Shown: positions 48,145 to 58,078 of the stretch, piece by piece
Layout of the letters: each line of letters begins with the position of its first letter
Position numbering within the stretch: the stretch's first letter is position 1
Assembly: GCF_039541115.1 (NCBI RefSeq)
Contig: NZ_BAABFP010000007.1
Span: forward strand, 558,001-622,000
Source of the DNA: Angustibacter luteus
Lineage (GTDB): Bacteria; Actinomycetota; Actinomycetes; Actinomycetales; Angustibacteraceae
Length of the DNA stretch: 64,000 nucleotides
Direction: 5' to 3'
The notes under the pieces: model-generated
Databases searched by the model: none
Seen by the model: only the letters and a program-made list of their open reading frames with translations
What the model was told of the DNA's origin: nothing
Made by a program: the position numbers and the translations under genes

Positions 48145-49371
48145 ATGCGCATCCTGCTGGTCGGGTCCGGTGGCGTCGGGGACGCCTTCGCCCGCATCGC
48201 CGTCCGCCGTCCCTTCTTCGAGCAGCTCGTGGTCGCGGACTACGACCTGGCCCGGGCCGAGCGCACCGTCGCGGCGGTCGACGACCCTCGAGTGCTCGCG
48301 GCCCAGGTGGACGCGTCGTCCGCGCAGTCGGTCACGGACCTGGCGCGCGCGCACCAGGTCACCCACGTGATGAACGCGGTCGACCCGCGGTTCGTGATGC
48401 CCGTCTTCGAGGGTGCCTTCGCGGCCGGTGCGGACTACCTGGACATGGCGATGAGCCTGTCCCAGCCGCACCCCGAGCACCCGCACCGGCAGACCGGTGT
48501 GATGCTCGGCGACGAGCAGTTCGCGGTCGCGACCGACTGGGAGGCCGCCGGCCGGCTGGCCCTGGTCGGCATGGGGGTGGAGCCGGGGCTGTCCGACGTG
48601 TTCGCCCGGTACGCCTGCGACCACCTGTTCAGCCAGGTCGACGAGCTCGGCACCCGGGACGGCTCGAACCTGACGGTGGACGGCTACGAGTTCGCGCCGT
48701 CGTTCTCGATCTGGACGACGATCGAGGAGTGCCTGAACCCGCCCGTGGTGTGGGAGGCCGACCGCGGCTGGTTCACCACGGCGCCGTTCAGCGAGCCCGA
48801 GGTCTTCGACTTCCCGGACGGCATCGGTCCCGTGGAGTGCGTGAACGTGGAGCACGAGGAGGTGCTGCTGATGCCGCGCTGGCTCGACGCGAAGCGAGTC
48901 ACGTTCAAGTACGGGCTGGGCGAGGAGTTCATCGACGTCCTGCGCACGCTGCACAAGCTGGGACTCGACTCGACCGAGCCCGTGCGGGTCGGTGGGGTGC
49001 AGGTCAGCCCGCGGGACGTCGTCGCCGCGTGCCTGCCGGACCCGGCGGGGCTGGGGGACCGGATGCACGGCAAGACCTGCGCCGGGCTGTGGGTCACGGG
49101 CACCGGGACGGACGGGCAGCCGCGCGAGGTGTACCTCTACCACGTCGTCGACAACGACTGGTCGATGCAGGAGTACGGCGCGCAGTGCGTGGTGTGGCAG
49201 ACCGCGGTCAACCCCGTGGTCGCGCTCGAGCTGCTCGCGACGGGCGCGTGGTCCGGGTCGGGTGTGCTCGGTCCCGAGGCCTTCGACGCCGTGCCGTTCC
49301 TGGACCTGCTCCGCGACGGCTACGGGTCACCGTGGGGGCTGCGCGAGCAGACCCCGGGCCCAGCCAGCTAG
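48145..49371 (+). CDS. Saccharopine dehydrogenase-like oxidoreductase (carboxy(nor)spermidine dehydrogenase-like)
   Basis: VGSGGVG, YLDMA, GMGVEPGLS, EHEEV, GVLGPEAFD. Confidence 0.82.
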   Translation: MRILLVGSGGVGDAFARIAVRRPFFEQLVVADYDLARAERTVAAVDDPRVLAAQVDASSAQSVTDLARAHQVTHVMNAVDPRFVMPVFEGAFAAGADYLDMAMSLSQPHPEHPHRQTGVMLGDEQFAVATDWEAAGRLALVGMGVEPGLSDVFARYACDHLFSQVDELGTRDGSNLTVDGYEFAPSFSIWTTIEECLNPPVVWEADRGWFTTAPFSEPEVFDFPDGIGPVECVNVEHEEVLLMPRWLDAKRVTFKYGLGEEFIDVLRTLHKLGLDSTEPVRVGGVQVSPRDVVAACLPDPAGLGDRMHGKTCAGLWVTGTGTDGQPREVYLYHVVDNDWSMQEYGAQCVVWQTAVNPVVALELLATGAWSGSGVLGPEAFDAVPFLDLLRDGYGSPWGLREQTPGPAS

Positions 49372-50729
49372 TCGCCGGCGACCGCGGACTCGAGGACGTC
49401 GAGCGCCTCGGCCAGCAGGGCGTCGTCGATCACCAGCGGGGGCAGGAAGCGCAGCACGTTGCCGAAGGTGCCGCAGGTGAGCGTCAGCACACCCTGCTGG
49501 TGGCAGGCAGCGCTGATCCGGGCGGCCTCGGCCGGGTCGGGGTCGGTGCTGCCGGGCACGACCAGCTCGATGGCGACCATCGCGCCGCGGCCCCGGACGT
49601 CGCCGATCTGCGCGTGCTGACCGGCCAGTGCGGAGAGCCGGTCCAGCATCGTCCGACCGATGGCGGCGGCACGGCCCGCCAGGTCGTCCTCCTCGAGCGA
49701 CTCCAGGGCGCCCAGCGCCGCGGCGCAGGCGACCGGGTTGCCGCCGTAGGTGCCACCGAGGCCGCCGGCGTGCACCGCGTCCATCAGCTCGGCGCGGCCG
49801 GTGACCGCAGCGAGCGGCAGGCCCCCCGCGATGCCCTTGGCGGTCGTGATCAGGTCCGGCACCACGCCCTCGTCGTCGCATGCGAACAGCGTGCCGGTCC
49901 GGCCGAACCCGGTCTGGATCTCGTCGGCGACGAAGACGATGCCGTTCTCGGTGCACCACTGCGCGATGGCCGGCAGGAAGCCCGGCGCCGGGACGACGAA
50001 GCCGCCCTCGCCCTGGATCGGCTCGATCACGACGGCGGCGACCTCGTCGGCGCCCACCTGCTTGTCGATGACCGAGATCGCGCGACGCGCGGCCTCCGCG
50101 CCGCTGATCGGCACCGGCTCGCGGAACGGGTAGCTCATCGGGGCCCGGTAGACCTCGCCCGCGAACGGGCCGAAGCCGTGCTTGTACGGCATGGACTTCG
50201 CCGTCATGGCCATCGTGAGGTTGGTGCGGCCGTGGTAGGCGTGGTCGAAGACGACCACGGCGTCGCGGCCGGTGGCCACCCGGGCGATCTTGACCGCGTT
50301 CTCCACCGCCTCGGCGCCGGAGTTGAACAGCGCCGACTTCTTCGCGTGGTCGCCGGGGGTGAGCCGGGCCAGCGCCTCGCAGACCGCGACGTAGCCCTCG
50401 TACGGGGTGACCATGAAGCAGGTGTGGGTGAACTGCTGCACCTGCTCGGTGACCCGGGCGACGACCCGCGGGTTGGCGTTGCCCACGTTGACCACGGCGA
50501 TGCCCGAGCCCAGGTCGATCAGCGAGTTGCCGTCGACGTCCTGCAGCACGCCACCACCGGCGCGGGCGATGTAGACCGGCAGGGTGGTCCCGACGCCGTC
50601 GGCGACTGCCGCCTGCTTGCGCGCGTGCAGCGCACGCGAGCGCGGCCCGGGGATCTCGGTCAGCAGCTCGCGGCGCTGAGGAACTCCGTCGGCGACGGCG
50701 GGGGACGTGGACTCGCGCAGGTCGGTCAT
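49368..50729 (-). CDS. gabT: 4-aminobutyrate:2-oxoglutarate transaminase
   Basis: NSGAEAVENAVK, EPIQGEGG, DEIQTGFGRTG, AKGIAGG, GGTYGGNP. Confidence 0.93.
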   Translation of the reverse strand: MTDLRESTSPAVADGVPQRRELLTEIPGPRSRALHARKQAAVADGVGTTLPVYIARAGGGVLQDVDGNSLIDLGSGIAVVNVGNANPRVVARVTEQVQQFTHTCFMVTPYEGYVAVCEALARLTPGDHAKKSALFNSGAEAVENAVKIARVATGRDAVVVFDHAYHGRTNLTMAMTAKSMPYKHGFGPFAGEVYRAPMSYPFREPVPISGAEAARRAISVIDKQVGADEVAAVVIEPIQGEGGFVVPAPGFLPAIAQWCTENGIVFVADEIQTGFGRTGTLFACDDEGVVPDLITTAKGIAGGLPLAAVTGRAELMDAVHAGGLGGTYGGNPVACAAALGALESLEEDDLAGRAAAIGRTMLDRLSALAGQHAQIGDVRGRGAMVAIELVVPGSTDPDPAEAARISAACHQQGVLTLTCGTFGNVLRFLPPLVIDDALLAEALDVLESAVAGD

Positions 50730-50876
50730 GGCTCGCAGACTAGCCACGAGGCCGACCGGCCCGCACCGCCAGAGTGCGGCCCACGGGCCCGGACGGCTGA
50801 CAGTGTGACGCCCGACCCACCCGTGCGCTGGACTAGCGTCGAGCCGCGACCACCCGACCACCCGAAGGAGCCCGCG

Positions 50877-52340
50877 GTGACCCAGCAGGACGAGCGACGC
50901 GTCGTCGAGGCCGTACCCCAGGGCCTGTTCATCGGCGGTCAGTGGCGGCCGGCGTCCGACGGCGCCGAGCTGAAGGTGCTCGACCCCTCCACCGAAGAGG
51001 TGCTGACCACCGTCGCCGACGCCTCGGTGGCCGACGGCCGCGAGGCGCTGGACGCTGCGGTTGCCGCGCAGGCGGGGTGGGCCGCCACGCCGCCGCGCGA
51101 CCGCGGCGAGATCCTGCGCGCGGCCTACGAGAAGGTCACCGAGCGCGCGGAGGACCTCGCGCTGCTGATGACGCTCGAGATGGGCAAGCCGCTGAAGGAG
51201 GCGCTGGGCGAGATCACCTACGGCGCCGAGTTCTTCCGGTGGTTCTCCGAGGAGGCCGTGCGCATCTCCGGTCGCTGGTCGACGGCCCCGAACGGCGCCA
51301 CCCGGCTGCTCACCATGAAGCAGCCCGTGGGGCCGTGCCTGATGATCACGCCCTGGAACTTCCCGCTCGCGATGGGCACCCGCAAGATCGGCCCCGCCAT
51401 CGCGGCCGGCTGCACGATGGTGGTCAAGCCGGCGTCCCAGACCCCGCTGACCATGTACGCGCTCGCCCAGATCCTCACCGAGTGCGGGCTGCCGGACGGC
51501 GTCCTCAACGTGGTGACGACGTCCCACACCGGCGACGTGATGGAGCCGCTGATCCGCGACCCCCGGCTGCGCAAGCTGACCTTCACCGGGTCCACGCCGG
51601 TCGGCCGCCGGCTGGTCGAGCAGTCGGCCGAGGGCCTGCTGCGGGTGTCGATGGAGCTCGGTGGGAACGCCCCGTTCATCGTCTTCGGCGACGCCGACCT
51701 GGACCGCGCCGTGGACGGCGCCATGCTCGCCAAGATGCGCAACATCGGCGAGGCCTGCACCGCGGCGAACCGGTTCATCGTGCACGAGTCGGTCTCGGCC
51801 GAGTTCTCCGCCCGGCTGGCCGAGCGGATGGGCGCGCTCACCGTCGGTCGGGGGACCGAGGACGGCGTGGACGTCGGTCCGCTGATCGACGGCACCCAGC
51901 GGGACAAGGTGGCCGAGCTCGTCCAGGACGCCGTCGACCTCGGGGGCAAGGTCCTCACCGGTGGGGGAGCACTGGACGGCAAGGGCTTCTACTTCGCGCC
52001 CACCGTGCTGGGCGACGTCCCGACCCAGGCGCGGGTCTTCGGCGAGGAGATCTTCGGCCCGGTCGCGCCGATCACCACCTTCGCCACGGACGACGAGGCG
52101 CTGGCGCTGGCCAACGACACCGAGTACGGGCTGATCGCCTACGCCTTCACCCGCGACCTGGCCCGAGCCCTCGCCGTCGCCGAGGGCCTGGAGACCGGCA
52201 TGGTCGGGATCAACGCGGGGGTGGTGTCCAACCCGGCGGCGCCGTTCGGCGGCGTCAAGGCCAGCGGGTTCGGTCGCGAGGGCGGCGCCGAGGGCATCGA
52301 GGAGTACCTCGAGACCAAGTACGTCGGCATCGCCCCCTGA
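50877..52340 (+). CDS. gabD: NAD(P)-dependent succinate-semialdehyde dehydrogenase
   Basis: PWNFP, MELGGNAP, RNIGEACTAAN, FGREGG; AAGGAG RBS before GTG 50877. Confidence 0.9.
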   Translation: MTQQDERRVVEAVPQGLFIGGQWRPASDGAELKVLDPSTEEVLTTVADASVADGREALDAAVAAQAGWAATPPRDRGEILRAAYEKVTERAEDLALLMTLEMGKPLKEALGEITYGAEFFRWFSEEAVRISGRWSTAPNGATRLLTMKQPVGPCLMITPWNFPLAMGTRKIGPAIAAGCTMVVKPASQTPLTMYALAQILTECGLPDGVLNVVTTSHTGDVMEPLIRDPRLRKLTFTGSTPVGRRLVEQSAEGLLRVSMELGGNAPFIVFGDADLDRAVDGAMLAKMRNIGEACTAANRFIVHESVSAEFSARLAERMGALTVGRGTEDGVDVGPLIDGTQRDKVAELVQDAVDLGGKVLTGGGALDGKGFYFAPTVLGDVPTQARVFGEEIFGPVAPITTFATDDEALALANDTEYGLIAYAFTRDLARALAVAEGLETGMVGINAGVVSNPAAPFGGVKASGFGREGGAEGIEEYLETKYVGIAP

Positions 52341-52351
52341 CATCCCCGGCG

Positions 52352-52474
52352 TCACCCGTTCGGCCCAATCGCTCGGCGTGTCGGTGGCTGGCTGCCCGGG
52401 AAAGTCGAAGTTCCCGTGCTGGACTAGTCCGTTCGGGTGCATTCGGGTCCGATCGCACTGACCCGAACGGGTGA
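52352..52474. promoter_or_regulatory. Cluster of BldM/WhiI-like 16-bp boxes
   Basis: TCACCCGTTCGGCCCA (52352), TAGTCCGTTCGGGTGC (52425), TGACCCGAACGGGTGA (52459). Confidence 0.6.
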
Positions 52475-52517
52475 GATGCTCACCCACAGGTAGTGAGTTT
52501 CGGTAACTTCCTGCGAC

Positions 52518-52532
52518 GTGACGCTGCGTGCG
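52518..52532. promoter_or_regulatory. BldD-box-like palindrome
   Basis: GTGACGCTGCGTGCG, one mismatch to NTNACNC(A/T)GNGTNAN. Confidence 0.5.
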
Positions 52533-52594
52533 GCTTCAATCGCTCACAGCGATACAGCCCGCCCGGGGCTGCCCCGCATCGCTGAGGAGTGCCG

Positions 52595-52699
52595 ATGAAG
52601 AAGAAGTCCCCTGTCAGCGCGGTCGTTCGCCTCAGTGCGGGCGTGCTCCCCGTGATCACCCTGGTGTCGGTGCTCGGCGCCGGCTCCAAGTGGTGGTGA
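52595..52699 (+). CDS. 34-aa signal-peptide-like micropeptide ending GAGSKWW (candidate precursor)
   Basis: GAGGAG (52584-52589), 5 nt, ATG; MKKKSPVSAVVRLSAGVLPVITLVSVLGAGSKWW*; below the ORF-track size cut-off. Confidence 0.8.
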   Translation: MKKKSPVSAVVRLSAGVLPVITLVSVLGAGSKWW

Positions 52700-52758
52700 T
52701 CGCCGTGCTGACGCGCAGCGAAGACACGCAGTACCTGCCCGGTTACAAGTGGGTCTAG
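52696..52758 (+). CDS. 20-aa micropeptide ending PGYKWV
   Basis: GTGA start/stop overlap with the preceding micro-ORF; MIAVLTRSEDTQYLPGYKWV*; alternative GTG starts at 52690, 52693 and 52705. Confidence 0.6.
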   Translation: MIAVLTRSEDTQYLPGYKWV

Positions 52759-52780
52759 GGCCTCGCGCCCGCTGACACCC

Positions 52781-54946
52781 ATGAAGCGACCCTCGCCCCT
52801 CGCGCTCTACGTCGCCTGCGTCGCCCTGCTGGGCGCGCTCGTGGCGGCGTGGAGCCTGTGGGGTGTCGGTCTCGCGGAGCTGGCCCGTACCGCCCCGAAC
52901 CCGGTGTGGTTCCTGGCGGTCGGGCTGGTTCTGGGCGAGCTCATGCCGATCCCCGTGGCCCGCGGGGACGACGAGACGTCCAACGTCACGATGTCGACCA
53001 CCTTCGCCGTGGCGCTGGTGACCACCGGACCCTTCGCCCTGCTCCTGCTGGTGCACACCATGGCCGTCGCGATCGACGACCTGCGCACCCGCCGGAGCGT
53101 GGCCAAGGTGCTGTTCAACTTCGGCCAGTACGCCGTGTCGTTGGCCGCCGCCCGCGCGGCGTTCTGCGTCATCACCGGCACGAGCTTCCACGCCGGCTAC
53201 ACCCCGCTGGACGCCAGCGAGCTGCCCGCGGCCCTCGTCGCGGGCTTCACGTTCATCATGCTCAACAACGGTCTCGTCGCCGTCGTCGTCGCCCTGGCCA
53301 CCCGCCAGCCGGTGCTGGCGATGCTGCGCGAGGACCTCGCATTCAAGCTCGAGACGTCCAGCGTGCTGCTCGGCCTGGCGCCGGTCGCCGCCGTGCTCGC
53401 CGAGATGAGCGGCTGGCTCCTACCCCTGCTCGCGCTGCCTGTCCTGGCGGTCCGCCGCTCCGCGGCGCTGGCCGTGGCCCGGCAGTCCCAGGCCCTGCGC
53501 GACGCCCTGACCGGACTGGGCAACCGCGAGCTCTTCTTCGGCCGCGCCGAGCGCATGCTCGCCGCCTACGAGCGCACCGAGAGTCCCTTCGCGGTGCTGA
53601 TGATCGACCTCGACCACTTCAAGGACATCAACGACACGCTCGGCCACCAGGTCGGTGACCGGGTCATCCAGACGGTCGGTGCCCGCATCGCGCACGCCGG
53701 CGGCCCCGACGGCTGCGTCGCCCGGCTCGGTGGCGACGAGTTCGCCATCACCATCCCCGGCGTGGACGTCGCGCAGGCGAGCGCCGCCGCCGAGACGCTG
53801 CTGTCCGACATCGTCCGTCCGCTGCACGTCGGCGGCATCCGGATGGTCATCCACGCCAGCGTCGGCATCGCCATGGCCGAGCCCGGCGTCGACGTCACCA
53901 CGCTGATGCAGCGGGCGGACATCGCCCTCTACGAGGCCAAGCGGGACCGCGCCCGGTGGTGCCTGTACGACGTCCAGTCCTCGACGGCGACCCCCGAGCG
54001 CCTCGGGCTGCTCGCCGACCTGCGCGACGCGATCGACCTGCGGCAGATCTCCGTGCACTTCCAGCCGCAGGTCGCGCTCAACGGCGGCCGCGTCTTCGGC
54101 GCCGAGGCGCTCGCGCGCTGGGACCACCCCGAGCGCGGCTCGGTCGCGCCCGAGGAGTTCATCGCCCTGGCCGAGCACGCCGGGCTCATCGACCAGGTGA
54201 CCGACATCGTCCTCGAGGAGTCGCTGGACGCGCTGGCCAGCTGGTCCCAGATGGGCATCGCCGCCCGCGTCTCGGTGAACCTGTCGGCCCGGCAGCTGGC
54301 CGACCTGGGGCTGCCCGAGCGGTTGCGTGACGCGTTGCGCCGGCACGGTGTCTCGCCGGGCCAGCTGACCGCGGAGGTGACCGAGGGCAGCATCATGGGC
54401 GACCCCCGGCGGGCCGCGCAGGTGCTGCACGAGCTCCGCCAGGAGGGCATCCGGATCGCCGTCGACGACTTCGGCACCGGCTACTCCTCGCTGGCCTACC
54501 TGCAGCGCCTGGACCTCGACGAGCTGAAGATCGACCGCAGCTTCGTGCAGTCGATGGGCGCCGTCTCGCGGGACGACGTGCTCGTCCGCTCGATCATCGA
54601 GCTCGCGCACAACCTCGGCCTGTCGGTGGTCGCCGAGGGCGTCGAGACCCCGGGGCAGGTCGAACGACTGCGCGAGCTGCAGTGCGACGCCGCCCAGGGC
54701 TACCACCTCGGTCGGCCGATGGACCGCGAGATGATGACCGCCTGGCTGCGTCGCGACACCATGCTCGAGCCCCTGCGGCTGCCCGAGGAGGACCACAGCG
54801 AGGACACCCTGCACGGTCTCGTGCAGGGGCTGGCCCACCTCGAGCCGTTCGGCCCGGCCGAGGCCGTGCCCGCCGTCCCGGCGACCGGTCGGTCCGGCAA
54901 GCCGACCCACCTGCGCGCCGTCCGGTCCGGACAGGGAACGGCGTGA
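52781..54946 (+). CDS. Membrane-bound GGDEF-EAL protein with multi-TM N-terminal sensor region
   Basis: ~230-aa hydrophobic N-terminus; DALTGLGNR, RLGGDEF, AEALARW, DDFGTGYSS, KIDRSFV, VAEGVE. Confidence 0.93.
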   Translation: MKRPSPLALYVACVALLGALVAAWSLWGVGLAELARTAPNPVWFLAVGLVLGELMPIPVARGDDETSNVTMSTTFAVALVTTGPFALLLLVHTMAVAIDDLRTRRSVAKVLFNFGQYAVSLAAARAAFCVITGTSFHAGYTPLDASELPAALVAGFTFIMLNNGLVAVVVALATRQPVLAMLREDLAFKLETSSVLLGLAPVAAVLAEMSGWLLPLLALPVLAVRRSAALAVARQSQALRDALTGLGNRELFFGRAERMLAAYERTESPFAVLMIDLDHFKDINDTLGHQVGDRVIQTVGARIAHAGGPDGCVARLGGDEFAITIPGVDVAQASAAAETLLSDIVRPLHVGGIRMVIHASVGIAMAEPGVDVTTLMQRADIALYEAKRDRARWCLYDVQSSTATPERLGLLADLRDAIDLRQISVHFQPQVALNGGRVFGAEALARWDHPERGSVAPEEFIALAEHAGLIDQVTDIVLEESLDALASWSQMGIAARVSVNLSARQLADLGLPERLRDALRRHGVSPGQLTAEVTEGSIMGDPRRAAQVLHELRQEGIRIAVDDFGTGYSSLAYLQRLDLDELKIDRSFVQSMGAVSRDDVLVRSIIELAHNLGLSVVAEGVETPGQVERLRELQCDAAQGYHLGRPMDREMMTAWLRRDTMLEPLRLPEEDHSEDTLHGLVQGLAHLEPFGPAEAVPAVPATGRSGKPTHLRAVRSGQGTA

Positions 54947-54950
54947 TCCG

Positions 54951-55493
54951 GTGCTGGTCGCCGCGCTCGTAGCGCTCGCCGTCCTGACCGTCCCGCTCAG
55001 CGGTGGTCGGTGGTCCGCGCTGGGCTCGCTCCGGTTGCGACACAGCTGGTTGCTGTGGATGGCGCTGCTCGGTCAGGTGCTGGCCCTCGAGGGGCCCGAC
55101 CTGGGTGGTTGGGCCGCTCTGCTGCACGTCGGCACGTACCTGCTGGCGGGCGCCTTCGTCGTCCTCAACCGCGCCATCCCGGGCCTCTGGCTGATCGCGG
55201 CCGGCGGCTTCCTCAACGGCATCACCATCGCGCTGAACGACGGGACGCTGCCGGCGTCGGCGCACGCGCTGCGCGCCGCCGGGCTGCCGGCCGACCACCA
55301 CCAGTTCGTGAACTCGGGCGTGGTCGGCGGAGCGCACCTGCCGTGGCTCGGCGACGTGTTCGCCTGGCCACAGCCGCTGCCGCTGGCCAACGTGTTCAGC
55401 GTGGGCGACGTCCTGCTGGTCGTGGGGGCGTTCTGGGCGATCCACCGGCTGGCCCGGCGCAGCCCGGCCGAGCCGCAGGTCGCCCTCGCGTGA
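54951..55493 (+). CDS. DUF5317-like membrane protein
   Basis: GGRWSAL, LNGITIALNDGTLP, WLGDVF...NVFSVGD; starts 4 nt after the GGDEF-EAL stop. Confidence 0.82.
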   Translation: MLVAALVALAVLTVPLSGGRWSALGSLRLRHSWLLWMALLGQVLALEGPDLGGWAALLHVGTYLLAGAFVVLNRAIPGLWLIAAGGFLNGITIALNDGTLPASAHALRAAGLPADHHQFVNSGVVGGAHLPWLGDVFAWPQPLPLANVFSVGDVLLVVGAFWAIHRLARRSPAEPQVALA

Positions 55494-55505: not shown

Positions 55506-56663
55506 ATGAGTCGCAGCGTGGTCCTGCTCGGGTCGACCGGGTCCGTCGGCGAGCAGGCCGTCGACGTCATCACCCGCAACCCCGACCGCTTCACCGTCAC
55601 CGCCCTGGCCGCGGCCGGGTCCGACGTCCGGCTGCTCGCGGAGCAGGCGGCCCGGCTGCAGGTCCAGCAGGTCGCGGTCGCCCGCGAGGACCGCGCGCCG
55701 GAGCTGCGCGCCGCCCTGGAGGCGGCCGGTGCCGGCGCCGAGGTGCTGGCCGGGCCGGACGCCGCCGAGCAGCTGGCCGCCCGCGGTGACGACCTGGTGC
55801 TGAACGCGATGACCGGCTCCATCGGGCTGCGTCCCACGTTGGCGGCGCTGGCCGCCGGCAGCACGCTCGCGCTGGCCAACAAGGAGTCGCTGATCGTCGG
55901 CGGCCCGCTGGTCAAGGCCGCCGCCGCTCCCGGCCAGATCGTGCCGGTGGACTCCGAGCACTCCGCGCTCGCGCAGTGCCTACGCGGCGGTCGGGAGTCC
56001 GAGGTGGCCCGCCTGGTGCTGACGGCCAGCGGCGGGCCCTTCCGTGGCCGGCCGCGGCACGAGCTGGACGACGTCACCCCGGCCCAGGCGCTGGCCCACC
56101 CCACCTGGGACATGGGCCGGATGGTCACCACCAACTCGGCGACGCTGGTGAACAAGGGCCTGGAGGTCATCGAGGCGCACCTGCTCTTCGACCTTCCGTT
56201 CGAGCGCATCGCCGTCGTGGTGCACCCGCAGTCGATCGTGCACTCGATGGTCGAGTTCACCGACGGCTCGACGCTCGCCCAGTGCTCGCCGCCGGACATG
56301 CGGCTGCCCATCGCGCTCGGCCTGGGCTGGCCGGACCGGGTGCCCGGCGCGGCCGCGGCCTGCGACTGGAGCACCGCGAGCACCTGGGAGTTCCTGCCGC
56401 TGGACGACGAGGCGTTCCCCGCCGTCGCCCTGGCCCGCCGGGTGGGGTCGGCGGGGTCGACGTACCCGGCGGTGTACAACGCGGCCAACGAGGAGTGCGT
56501 GGACGCCTTCCACGACGGCCGGATCCGGTTCACCGCGATCGTCGACACGGTGACGCAGGTGGTCGACGAGCACGAGCCGCCCGCCGGCCCCCTCACCCTG
56601 ACGGACGTGCTCGAGGCCGAACGGTGGGCGCGGGCTCGAGCGCATGAGAAACTGGGAGTATGA
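55506..56663 (+). CDS. dxr: 1-deoxy-D-xylulose-5-phosphate reductoisomerase
   Basis: [38 protein letters not shown]. Confidence 0.97.
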
Positions 56664-58078
56664 CCGTCCTGCTCTACGCCCTCGGCGTGCTGCTGTTCGC
56701 CGTGGGTCTCGCGGCGTCCATCGCGCTGCACGAGATCGGGCACCTCGTCCCCGCCAAGAAGTTCGGCGTCAAGGTCACCCAGTACATGGTGGGCTTCGGC
56801 CCGACGGCCTGGTCGCGCCGGCGCGGTGAGACCGAGTACGGCGTCAAGTGGGTCCCGCTGGGCGGCTACATCCGGATGATCGGCATGTTCCCGCCGAAGC
56901 CCGGACAGGCGCCGGAGGAGGCGCTGCGCGCCACGTCCACCGGGCGGGTCGGGATGATGCTGGACCAGGCGGTGCAGTCCCGCGCCACCCGTCGTGGCAC
57001 GGCGACCGGTGAGCGTCGGGTGGGCATGGCCGAGGCCGCCCGCCAGCAGTCGATGGACGAGATCCAGCCCGGCGACGAGGCCCGCGTCTTCTACAAGCTC
57101 CCCGTGCACCAGAAGATCATCGTGATGCTCGGCGGTCCCACGATGAACCTGCTGATCGGCACCGTCCTGCTGGCGGGCGTCTACATGGCCTACGGCCTGC
57201 CGGTCGACAAGCCCGGAGCGCAGGTCGCCGCGGTCAACGAGTGCGTCGTCAGCGCGGACGCGGCCCAGACCCAGACCACCTGCGCCGCAACCGATCCGAA
57301 GACCCCCGCGTACGAGGCCGGGCTACGCCCCGGGGACACCATCGTGGCCGTCGCCGGCGAGGACGTGCAGAACAGCGCGGCCGTCGGGCGGCTGATCCGG
57401 CCGCGGGTCGGCCAGACCGTGCCCGTCGTCGTCGTCCGGGACGGCGAGCGACTGACGCTGCAGATCACCCCGATCGAGAACACCGTCACCAAGGTGGACG
57501 GCGACGGCCAGCCGGTGCTCGGCGCCGACGGAAAGGCCGAGACCGTGCGCGCCGGCTTCCTCGGCGTGAGCACCCAGACCCCCTCGGTGGTCGAGCGGCA
57601 GTCGATCACGCAGGTCCCCGGCGAGGTCGGGTCGGCGCTGTCGGCCACCGCCGCCGTCGTGGTGCGGATCCCGCAGAAGATGGTCGGCGTGGTGCAGACC
57701 ATGAGCTCGGGCGAGCGGGACCCCAACGGCCCGATCAGCGTCGTCGGCGTCGGCCGGATCGCCGGCGAGGTGGCCAGCGCGGACGGCGCGTGGTCAGCCA
57801 AGCTCGCCACGATGCTCGGCGTCCTCGCCTCGCTGAACTTCGCGCTGTTCGTGTTCAACCTCATCCCGCTGCTGCCGCTGGACGGCGGACACGTGGCGGG
57901 GGCGATCTGGGAGGGTCTGCGACGCACGTGGGCGCGGCTGCGGCACCGGCCGGACCCCGGCCCCGTGGACGTCGCGCGCCTGCTGCCCATCGCCTACGGC
58001 GTCGGGACCGTGCTGATCGTGATGTCCGTGATCCTGATCTACGCCGACATCGTCAATCCCATCAAGCTGCTCGGCTGA
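56660..58078 (+). CDS. M50 intramembrane zinc metalloprotease with PDZ (RseP/Rip1-like)
   Basis: [26 protein letters not shown]. Confidence 0.93.

Follow-up and report, generated by a model that had tools for sequence, protein, structure and literature searches.

What is encoded directly upstream of a cyclic di-GMP (c-di-GMP) enzyme gene of Angustibacter luteus, and what could its product do there? The window analysed here is a whole stretch of 64,000 nucleotides (nt) of this species (NCBI RefSeq assembly GCF_039541115.1, contig NZ_BAABFP010000007.1, positions 558,001 to 622,000), and positions are those of the window unless a locus name precedes them. The element in question is an open reading frame (ORF) of 34 amino acids (aa), ORF A (52595-52699, forward strand), predicted to encode a single-pass membrane peptide with the N-terminus inside and the C-terminus outside (N-in/C-out) and with the tail G-A-G-S-K-W-W. 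It is the first cistron of an operon in which one or more such peptides are followed by a gene for a membrane protein with MASE9, GGDEF and EAL domains and then by a gene for a DUF5317 membrane protein. As judged from the comparison of sequences, ORF A is a genuine gene that codes for a tiny membrane peptide and is conserved widely, and the tightest link of this peptide appears to be to DUF5317, not to the GGDEF-EAL gene. The conserved trio points to an undescribed three-part membrane signalling unit. We tentatively favour the reading that the peptide is a trans-acting N-in/C-out membrane subunit or ligand of a DUF5317/MASE9 complex, which we rate as slightly short of probable.

ORF A begins with ATG at 52595-52597 and ends with TGA at 52697-52699. 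A preliminary description of this DNA had reported a ribosome-binding site GAGGAG at 5-nt spacing, and this is borne out by the sequence, with the Shine-Dalgarno site at 52584-52589 on the forward strand followed by the spacer tgccg and the start codon. The basic n-region, hydrophobic core and LGAG-SKWW end given in the same description are likewise found in the 34-aa product, where KKK forms residues 2-4 and is followed by the hydrophobic middle and by L-G-A-G-S-K-W-W-stop. Within 8 kilobases (kb) around ORF A there are 68 ORFs of at least 25 aa, in DNA of 71.8% G+C. ORF A alone is at chance level in such DNA, so the case rests on comparison with other genomes.

This comparison is favourable. 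The tblastn check for conservation that had been proposed with the preliminary description shows that, of the 13 closest orthologues of the MASE9-GGDEF-EAL gene (loci L001-L013), all but two (L005 and L007) are preceded by a relative of ORF A, 11 in total. It finds no peptide ORF upstream at the loci of more distant paralogues, L014-L019. The ratio of nonsynonymous to synonymous substitution rates (dN/dS), the other check proposed, agrees with a coding sequence. It is 0.14-0.46 in eight close pairs, each with few synonymous changes (2-9 per pair), and is meaningless for distant pairs, in which the strong G+C bias has led to saturation at the synonymous sites. Codon-position entropy is 1.04/0.94/1.23, so that the third position varies most. 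The G+C content by codon position is 0.59/0.50/0.91 for ORF A in frame and 0.59/0.56/0.89 as a mean over 34 distinct family copies, with a third-position value (GC3) of 0.94-0.97 in the flanking genes. All 34 copies have a GGAG-like Shine-Dalgarno site 3-8 nt before the start codon, which is ATG in 29 and GTG in 5. Ala and Gly codons of the conserved motif differ at the third base with the residues unchanged. Lys (AAG) and Trp (TGG) leave little synonymous room, so their invariance cannot separate selection at the protein level from selection at the nucleotide level.

Two alignments define the family, A1 with 12 sequences, used as the profile for the order, and A3 with 50 sequences, used as the profile for the class. 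With the A1 profile, family ORFs of 29-38 aa are present in 43 of the 201 sampled genomes of the order, 36 of which have a single match. With the A3 profile they are present in 61 of 401 sampled genomes of the class. The source genome has one significant match, at the ORF A locus. In a library of 1.84 billion proteins, 70 cluster representatives match at E<=1e-3, with lengths that are mostly 29-37 aa, and the identical 34-aa sequence exists among metagenome gene calls, without a name. Relatives with names are from Angustibacter, Demequina and uncultured Actinomycetes genomes. This is an unnamed actinobacterial small-protein family: members in public sources are termed only “hypothetical protein”, scans of the peptide against Pfam and NCBIfam return no family, and the ESM Atlas returns just unnamed clusters of 32-36-aa hypothetical proteins, with a score of 0.88 that is below the counting level. 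A PDB sequence search with the peptide profile gives nothing below E 0.39, and such a peptide is not described in the full-text literature searched, outside subscription journals. Variant peptides ending G-A-G-V-K-F-(T/G)-W lie at L101 1482-1646 and at L105 3414-3512 (reverse strand). Both precede MASE9-GGDEF-EAL-DUF5317 modules and both were missed by the profile search, hence the family is wider than the counts given.

The anatomy of the peptide was read from the 50 aligned sequences, with positions counted from the invariant Lys. The net charge is +3.5 for the N-flank compared to +0.4 for the C-flank. The positive-inside rule is the established basis for reading topology, and with a basic N-flank and a near-neutral C-flank it predicts N-in/C-out. 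Position -20 is mostly basic or Gln (R 33, Q 10, K 5). The 18-residue core (-19 to -2) is rich in Ala, Gly, Ser and Val, with a mean Kyte-Doolittle hydropathy of 1.8. Small residues (G, A, S, T) reach at least 90% at -16, -14, -10, -7, -4, -3 and -2, positions that would line up along a single side of a helix, in the manner of helix-helix packing motifs. Three residues never vary, namely A(-3), K(0) and W(+1), while Gly occupies -4 in 45/50 members and -2 in 47/50. The K-W pair lies 0-3 residues from the stop codon in 50/50 members, mostly with zero to two residues after the Trp.

The likeness of L-G-A-G to a lipobox without its Cys, which the preliminary description had pointed out, does not hold in the family. 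The residue after G-A-G is Ser in ORF A and Cys in just 1/50 members, and of a lipoprotein signal only the n-region and the h-region are found, with the charge of +3.5 and the core hydropathy of 1.8. We also considered the peptide as a detached helix of DUF5317 or MASE9, and this was rejected with a profile comparison probability <1% for each. The first helix of DUF5317 (54951-55030) ends in G-G-R-W, loosely like the G-A-G-x-K-W of the peptide, a likeness that in view of the same comparison is probably a coincidence.

The gene for the MASE9-GGDEF-EAL membrane protein (52781-54946, forward strand, 721 aa) was assigned by Pfam hits and motifs. For MASE9 (Pfam PF20972; cut-off 24.3 bits) the score is 28.4 bits with the isolated domain and 23.2, just under the cut-off, with the whole protein, and MASE9 is matched in 22/23 orthologous N-terminal domains. 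The GGDEF and EAL domains have their catalytic motifs, with GGDEF, EAL, DDFGTG and EGVE present in the 721-aa protein, and an RxxD I-site was not found in it. According to the accessible part of the preprint on MASE9, the domain was defined in T. maritima TM1467, has GGDEF-EAL partners and carries charged residues in its membrane core, with ligand binding proposed within the membrane and no ligand known (bioRxiv 10.1101/2021.11.05.467447). The source genome also has a paralogue of the gene, at G000:C2:212870-214852, with 38% identity over the full length.

In the order sample, 27/29 loci have the peptide directly ahead of a homologue of the MASE9-GGDEF-EAL gene and in the same orientation, the exceptions being one contig end and L059. 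In the class sample this is the case for 25/29 loci, with two contig ends, L064 and L087 as exceptions. The alternative offered in the preliminary description, an intact peptide serving as membrane subunit of the GGDEF-EAL protein, appears to fit these loci better; its choice of partner stands less well, with the tightest link apparently leading to the next gene.

This next gene encodes a DUF5317 membrane protein of 180 aa (54951-55493, forward strand; PF17248, 88.6 bits against a cut-off of 25) and begins 4 nt after the MASE9-GGDEF-EAL gene. Among loci L001-L030, DUF5317 follows the MASE9-GGDEF-EAL gene in 9 of the 11 loci with a peptide and in none of the 19 without. In the order sample of 201 genomes, 35 have both peptide and DUF5317. 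The peptide only is seen in 8 genomes, seven with weak hits (E of at least 5e-4) and one with a strong hit (G003), and several of the weak hits, placed in long open frames, are probably spurious. DUF5317 only is seen in 3 genomes, each with a partial match, and no full-length DUF5317 is found alone. In the class sample, DUF5317 is present in 58 of the 61 peptide genomes versus 182/401 overall. Of the remaining three peptide genomes, two have only weak hits and the third has its hit at a contig end. These tallies include unpublished genomes (G237 in both samples; G556, G244, G225, G491 and G231 in the class sample), on which no specific statement depends. The gap between 61 and 182 comes in part from divergence and subfamilies, as with further DUF5317 genes that are found in other contexts and form a subfamily at a greater distance (~33% identity).

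Three further cases point to DUF5317 as a partner. At L094 (1045-1729, reverse strand) only 77 nt separate a peptide from the DUF5317 gene downstream of it and no GGDEF-EAL gene intervenes, which looks like a minimal peptide-DUF5317 pair. The orthologues at L005 and L007 have lost both the peptide and DUF5317. Finally, in G003, which has no DUF5317, the peptide is 36% identical to ORF A, and in G002 it is 68% identical, the MASE9-GGDEF-EAL genes of both being 79% identical to the one of Angustibacter luteus. The two larger genes are themselves closely tied: at L126-L130 the GGDEF-EAL stop overlaps the first codons of DUF5317 in 5/5 loci, which indicates translational coupling. A fusion of GGDEF-EAL and DUF5317, suggested by long open frames, was rejected, as all five loci show a stop codon and a frame change.

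The DUF5317 protein has 1249 homologues at E<=1e-5, with many invariant polar residues, among them two invariant G-D motifs and invariant His and Asn residues. Its AlphaFold model (predicted local distance difference test, pLDDT, 89.9) has five long helices and a structured segment, 96-150, that holds most of the invariant residues. From the model and the positive-inside rule we infer that this segment would lie outside the cytoplasm, on the same side as the predicted peptide tail, and the invariant loop N-G-G-T-L-P-A ... L-G-D ... A-N-x-F-S-x-G-D is placed on that side too. Foldseek and VIA-align searches with the model give nothing at E<=0.001, with helical-hairpin matches only (Z<=7.2), and a PDB sequence search with the DUF5317 profile gives nothing below E 0.39. 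A full-text search of the literature outside subscription journals finds no mention of DUF5317. The domain is also found above cut-off in the control genomes of Thermotoga maritima and Thermus thermophilus.

A second tiny ORF, ORF B (52696-52758, forward strand), stands between ORF A and the MASE9-GGDEF-EAL gene. It has 20 codons from the GTG at 52696 (or 17 from the GTG at 52705), is hydrophilic and ends P-G-Y-K-W-V-stop, with TAG at 52756-52758. Its GTG overlaps the TGA of ORF A in a different frame, and its GC3 is 0.90 in its own frame. After the 34 copies of A, we found an ORF ending P-G-Y-K-W plus 0-1 residue in 19 cases, one ending A-G-K-K-W in 3, and none in 12; the latter include Demequina, whose A ends G-A-G-(Y/W/F)-K-W. 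The body of ORF B is variable, has 7-33 residues and can be in either frame other than that of A. In every case B begins within the A stop or shortly after it, which fits translational coupling and argues against a programmed frameshift. Such a frameshift joining A and B was rejected, as B lies in either other frame depending on the taxon and the sequence at the junction is not constant. Other orders of the class have a second membrane-type peptide in the second position. ORF B looks like a derived paralogue of this second peptide, which would have lost the helix and kept the G-x-K-W tail.

In genus g22, the whole unit of leader, A and B is duplicated in tandem upstream of the MASE9-GGDEF-EAL gene (L004 632-1509, L035 1301-2182 and L042 1286-2160), as would suit a product with a dose-dependent role. 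The module is preceded by pairs of membrane-type peptides in uncultured Actinomycetes. Copies also occur in other surroundings. At L092 (1596-2854, uncultured actinomycete) three consecutive peptide pairs follow each other with a period of ~520 nt, and no MASE9 gene follows within the fetched stretch. At L064 (1501-2853) a peptide pair lies directly upstream of a sodium/bile acid symporter family (SBF) gene, and at L059 (1501-2053) one peptide lies upstream of the gene for a Phage_holin_4_2-like four-helix protein.

As a trans-acting membrane subunit or ligand, the ORF A peptide would be made in step with the MASE9-GGDEF-EAL and DUF5317 proteins and would enter the membrane in such a way that the basic N-terminus stays in the cytoplasm. 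The small-residue face (Ser, Ala, Gly or Thr every 3-4 positions) may then pack on helices of DUF5317 and/or MASE9, and the Lys-Trp tail would reach the outer interface of the membrane, the side on which the invariant loop of DUF5317 is also predicted. The subunit or intramembrane ligand would in this way set the balance between c-di-GMP synthesis and breakdown in the GGDEF-EAL output. An intramembrane peptide agrees with the ligand binding inside the membrane put forward for MASE9 in the accessible part of its preprint (bioRxiv 10.1101/2021.11.05.467447). A complex prediction of the MASE9 domain with the peptide scored 0.14, where the mark is 0.32, a result with no bearing on binding either way.

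A small membrane protein attached to a sensor is of a known kind. MgrB and SafA are small single-pass membrane proteins that modulate PhoQ. Like them, the ORF A peptide has fewer than 50 aa and one helix, is encoded with or near the sensor, and would act inside the membrane on a sensor domain. Size and build agree (29-38 aa, one moderately hydrophobic helix and an N-in charge bias), and so does the genetic link to the sensor, both in the 27/29 and 25/29 loci and in the 35 genomes that also have DUF5317. On the other hand, there is no sequence relation to MgrB or SafA. The proposed target is a MASE9 c-di-GMP enzyme plus DUF5317 and not a histidine kinase, and ORF A is the first cistron of the same operon, has a fixed G-x-K-W tail and is often paired. 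The accessible part of the MASE9 preprint mentions neither a small peptide nor a DUF5317 partner (bioRxiv 10.1101/2021.11.05.467447). In the literature searched, there is no description of this family or of its Lys-Trp tail, nor of a second copy that is paired or has no helix, nor of the trio with MASE9-GGDEF-EAL and DUF5317.

Several points weigh against a trans-acting subunit. The translation, membrane insertion and binding of the peptide are all inferred from sequence, and the helix is only moderately hydrophobic, being rich in Ala, Gly, Ser and Thr. The conserved tail always adjoins the stop codon, so that a translational role fits too. ORF B carries the same tail without a hydrophobic segment, which is hard to reconcile with a tail needed at the outer membrane face, and the retention of this tail by the helix-less ORF B is the main difficulty. 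Lastly, the copies at L064, L059 and L092 show that the family is not exclusive to the module.

The main rival is a cis-acting leader, which on balance we consider rather unlikely. A and B would here be upstream ORFs whose nascent G-x-K-W-(x)-stop end slows termination or arrests the ribosome, possibly in response to a small molecule or to the Trp supply, and thereby controls how many ribosomes reach the GGDEF-EAL start. The position of K-W, never more than three residues from the stop in any of the 50 members, would be explained in this way. The same is true of ORF B, with its variable body in either frame and its fixed C-terminal P-G-Y-K-W, as a variable body with a fixed C-terminus is the typical pattern of arrest peptides. 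The arrangement of the genes is also suitable: the B start overlaps or closely follows the A stop, the B stop lies 23-36 nt before the large gene in Angustibacter and g22, and at the start of the latter gene no GGAG-like site is seen by eye in L001-L003. The copies outside the module precede membrane-protein genes as well. TnaC, SecM, MifM and ApdA are comparable in having a short ORF before the regulated gene and C-terminal conservation, and Trp is a key residue in several arrest or leader peptides. C-terminal conservation of this kind is seen in ORF B and in part in ORF A, where the helix is conserved too.

It is this helix that a leader leaves without an evident need, with its periodic small face and its basic position -20. 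In arrest by force sensing, as in MifM and SecM, the membrane segment must leave the exit tunnel before the arrest point. The ORF A helix ends 2-4 residues before the stop codon, and force sensing of the MifM/SecM type is excluded because the helix would still sit inside the ribosome. ORF A further differs from TnaC, SecM, MifM and ApdA in that whole units are duplicated in tandem, with arrays that no MASE9 gene follows, and in that the co-occurrence across genomes is with DUF5317, whose gene is the second one downstream. The promoter and terminator scan gave neither a terminator nor an attenuator, and there was no Rfam match. A leader and a membrane subunit are not mutually exclusive, as a translated leader can also yield a functional peptide. 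The paired ORFs, with the same tail and with a helix in only one of them, are a natural dissection of the motif, and the A/B pair could be used to separate a trans-acting function of the protein from a cis-acting, translational one.

A different role in trans, which we hold to be unlikely, is that the ribosomally made peptides of the A type (and of the B type) are self-made ligands. They would present or release the fixed G-x-K-W end, which would be bound or processed by DUF5317 at the membrane surface and sensed by MASE9. If true, this would mean an endogenous peptide signal coupled directly to c-di-GMP turnover. It would also give MASE9 a first ligand and DUF5317 a first function, and Actinomycetes would have a peptide-to-c-di-GMP pathway. 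The inputs of membrane-bound c-di-GMP enzymes are mostly unknown, and the translationally linked trio offers a concrete, testable hypothesis for both the MASE9-GGDEF-EAL and the DUF5317 proteins.

A cleaved precursor seems quite improbable to us. In this reading signal peptidase I, or DUF5317 in the role of a membrane peptidase, would cleave the peptide at V-G-A|G or G-A-G|x. Just as improbable in our view is the outcome that this would have, an x-K-W-(x) piece of 3-5 residues released outside the cell, or a processed helix left behind, with MASE9 sensing the product as a self-made signal. The succession of an n-region, a predicted h-region (~18 residues) and small residues would suit such a precursor. 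The -3/-1 rule of signal peptidase I asks for small residues at both positions, and the family has them, with the invariant A(-3) and the frequent Gly at -4 and -2. The short C-terminal piece is the most conserved part, as is usual for ribosomal precursors of fixed products, in which conservation is highest in the product piece. The precursors of the enterococcal sex pheromones and of the SHP/Rgg systems are built alike, with a basic N-end, a hydrophobic stretch and the active part at the C-terminus.

DUF5317 could be an enzyme, having the two invariant G-D motifs, the invariant His and Asn residues and a confident model with no solved relative, and its putative role as a peptidase is suggested by a resemblance of motifs. 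Without a Cys, the peptide does not qualify as a lipoprotein signal. The tail is shared by ORF B, in which there is no export signal, and a signal of 3-5 residues would be unusually small. A mature domain after the cleavage site is not seen, as 2-6 residues follow G-A-G in 49/50 members and nine in one. To our knowledge, the enterococcal sex pheromone and SHP/Rgg systems are not known in Actinomycetes, and ORF A differs from these pheromones of Firmicutes in that no Rgg-type receptor or Opp import is implied.

Very unlikely is a membrane-active toxin or bacteriocin-like peptide (a type I toxin or a leaderless two-peptide system) that adjoins the signalling genes by chance. In favour of it, the peptides are both hydrophobic and cationic, of small size, and have a Trp near the end. 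Tandem pairs occur in other orders and an array of three pairs at L092, and repeated units are known for type I toxins. The single match in 36/43 genomes of the order, the position kept across many genera and the near-perfect co-occurrence with DUF5317 do not, however, resemble toxin loci, which are mobile and patchy. We identified no gene for immunity or export and no antisense gene, antisense RNA not having been searched for. A chance ORF in G+C-rich intergenic DNA, with an apparent conservation due to an RNA or DNA element, has next to no probability, since, common as ORFs of this length are here and little as the Lys and Trp codons can vary, it is already contradicted by the conservation and coding signals described above (in-frame GC3, close-pair dN/dS, third-position changes in the motif Gly and Ala codons) together with the ORF length, start codon and Shine-Dalgarno site retained in 34/34 copies and the lack of an Rfam match.

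The 5' leader of the operon was examined in an alignment of 11 sequences of Angustibacter and genus g22, to which duplicated units contributed each of their two copies. It contains a conserved block (52512-52555, forward strand) that is promoter- or operator-like, and a stem-loop just upstream of the Shine-Dalgarno site (52555-52571, forward strand), read from the alignment by eye and from a fold. A hairpin of 4-6 base pairs is possible by eye in 10/11 sequences, with a differing stem sequence and a kept position, and both copies of the g22 units have the block and the hairpin. An Rfam scan of 52200-52900 returned chance-level rows only (E 2.5-8.8), and the promoter and terminator scan found nothing. 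Two candidates were rejected: an alternative leader structure with two ATCGCT flanking AGCGAT, the second ATCGCT not being kept in L002, and a Sigma-28/WhiG-type promoter, for which the spacing, compared by eye with the consensus, is wrong. A G+C-rich hairpin (GGGC/GCCC; 52758-52770, forward strand), seen in the sequence and its fold, directly follows the ORF B stop, and similar short hairpins are seen by eye in L002 and L004. The MASE9-GGDEF-EAL gene that comes next starts without an obvious Shine-Dalgarno site.

In terms of expression, four metatranscriptome runs contain small shares of the sampled words (0.04-0.07). Short contigs from three RNA runs of three studies cover 52458-52713 at 95-100% likeness, stretches without such contigs carrying no meaning. 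This gives a weak hint that 52458-52713 is transcribed in close relatives, weak because DNA can be present in RNA libraries. The contigs of two runs (X1 and X3) share one additional C behind 52571, which means that their origin is a close relative and not this strain.

The neighbourhood is otherwise ordinary: the translations of the upstream genes (48145-52340) are saccharopine-dehydrogenase-like, gabT-like and gabD-like, and those of the downstream genes (55506-58078) are dxr-like and RseP-type protease. The RseP-type protease gene, 4 kb downstream, is part of a dxr-rseP neighbourhood that we take to be widely conserved.

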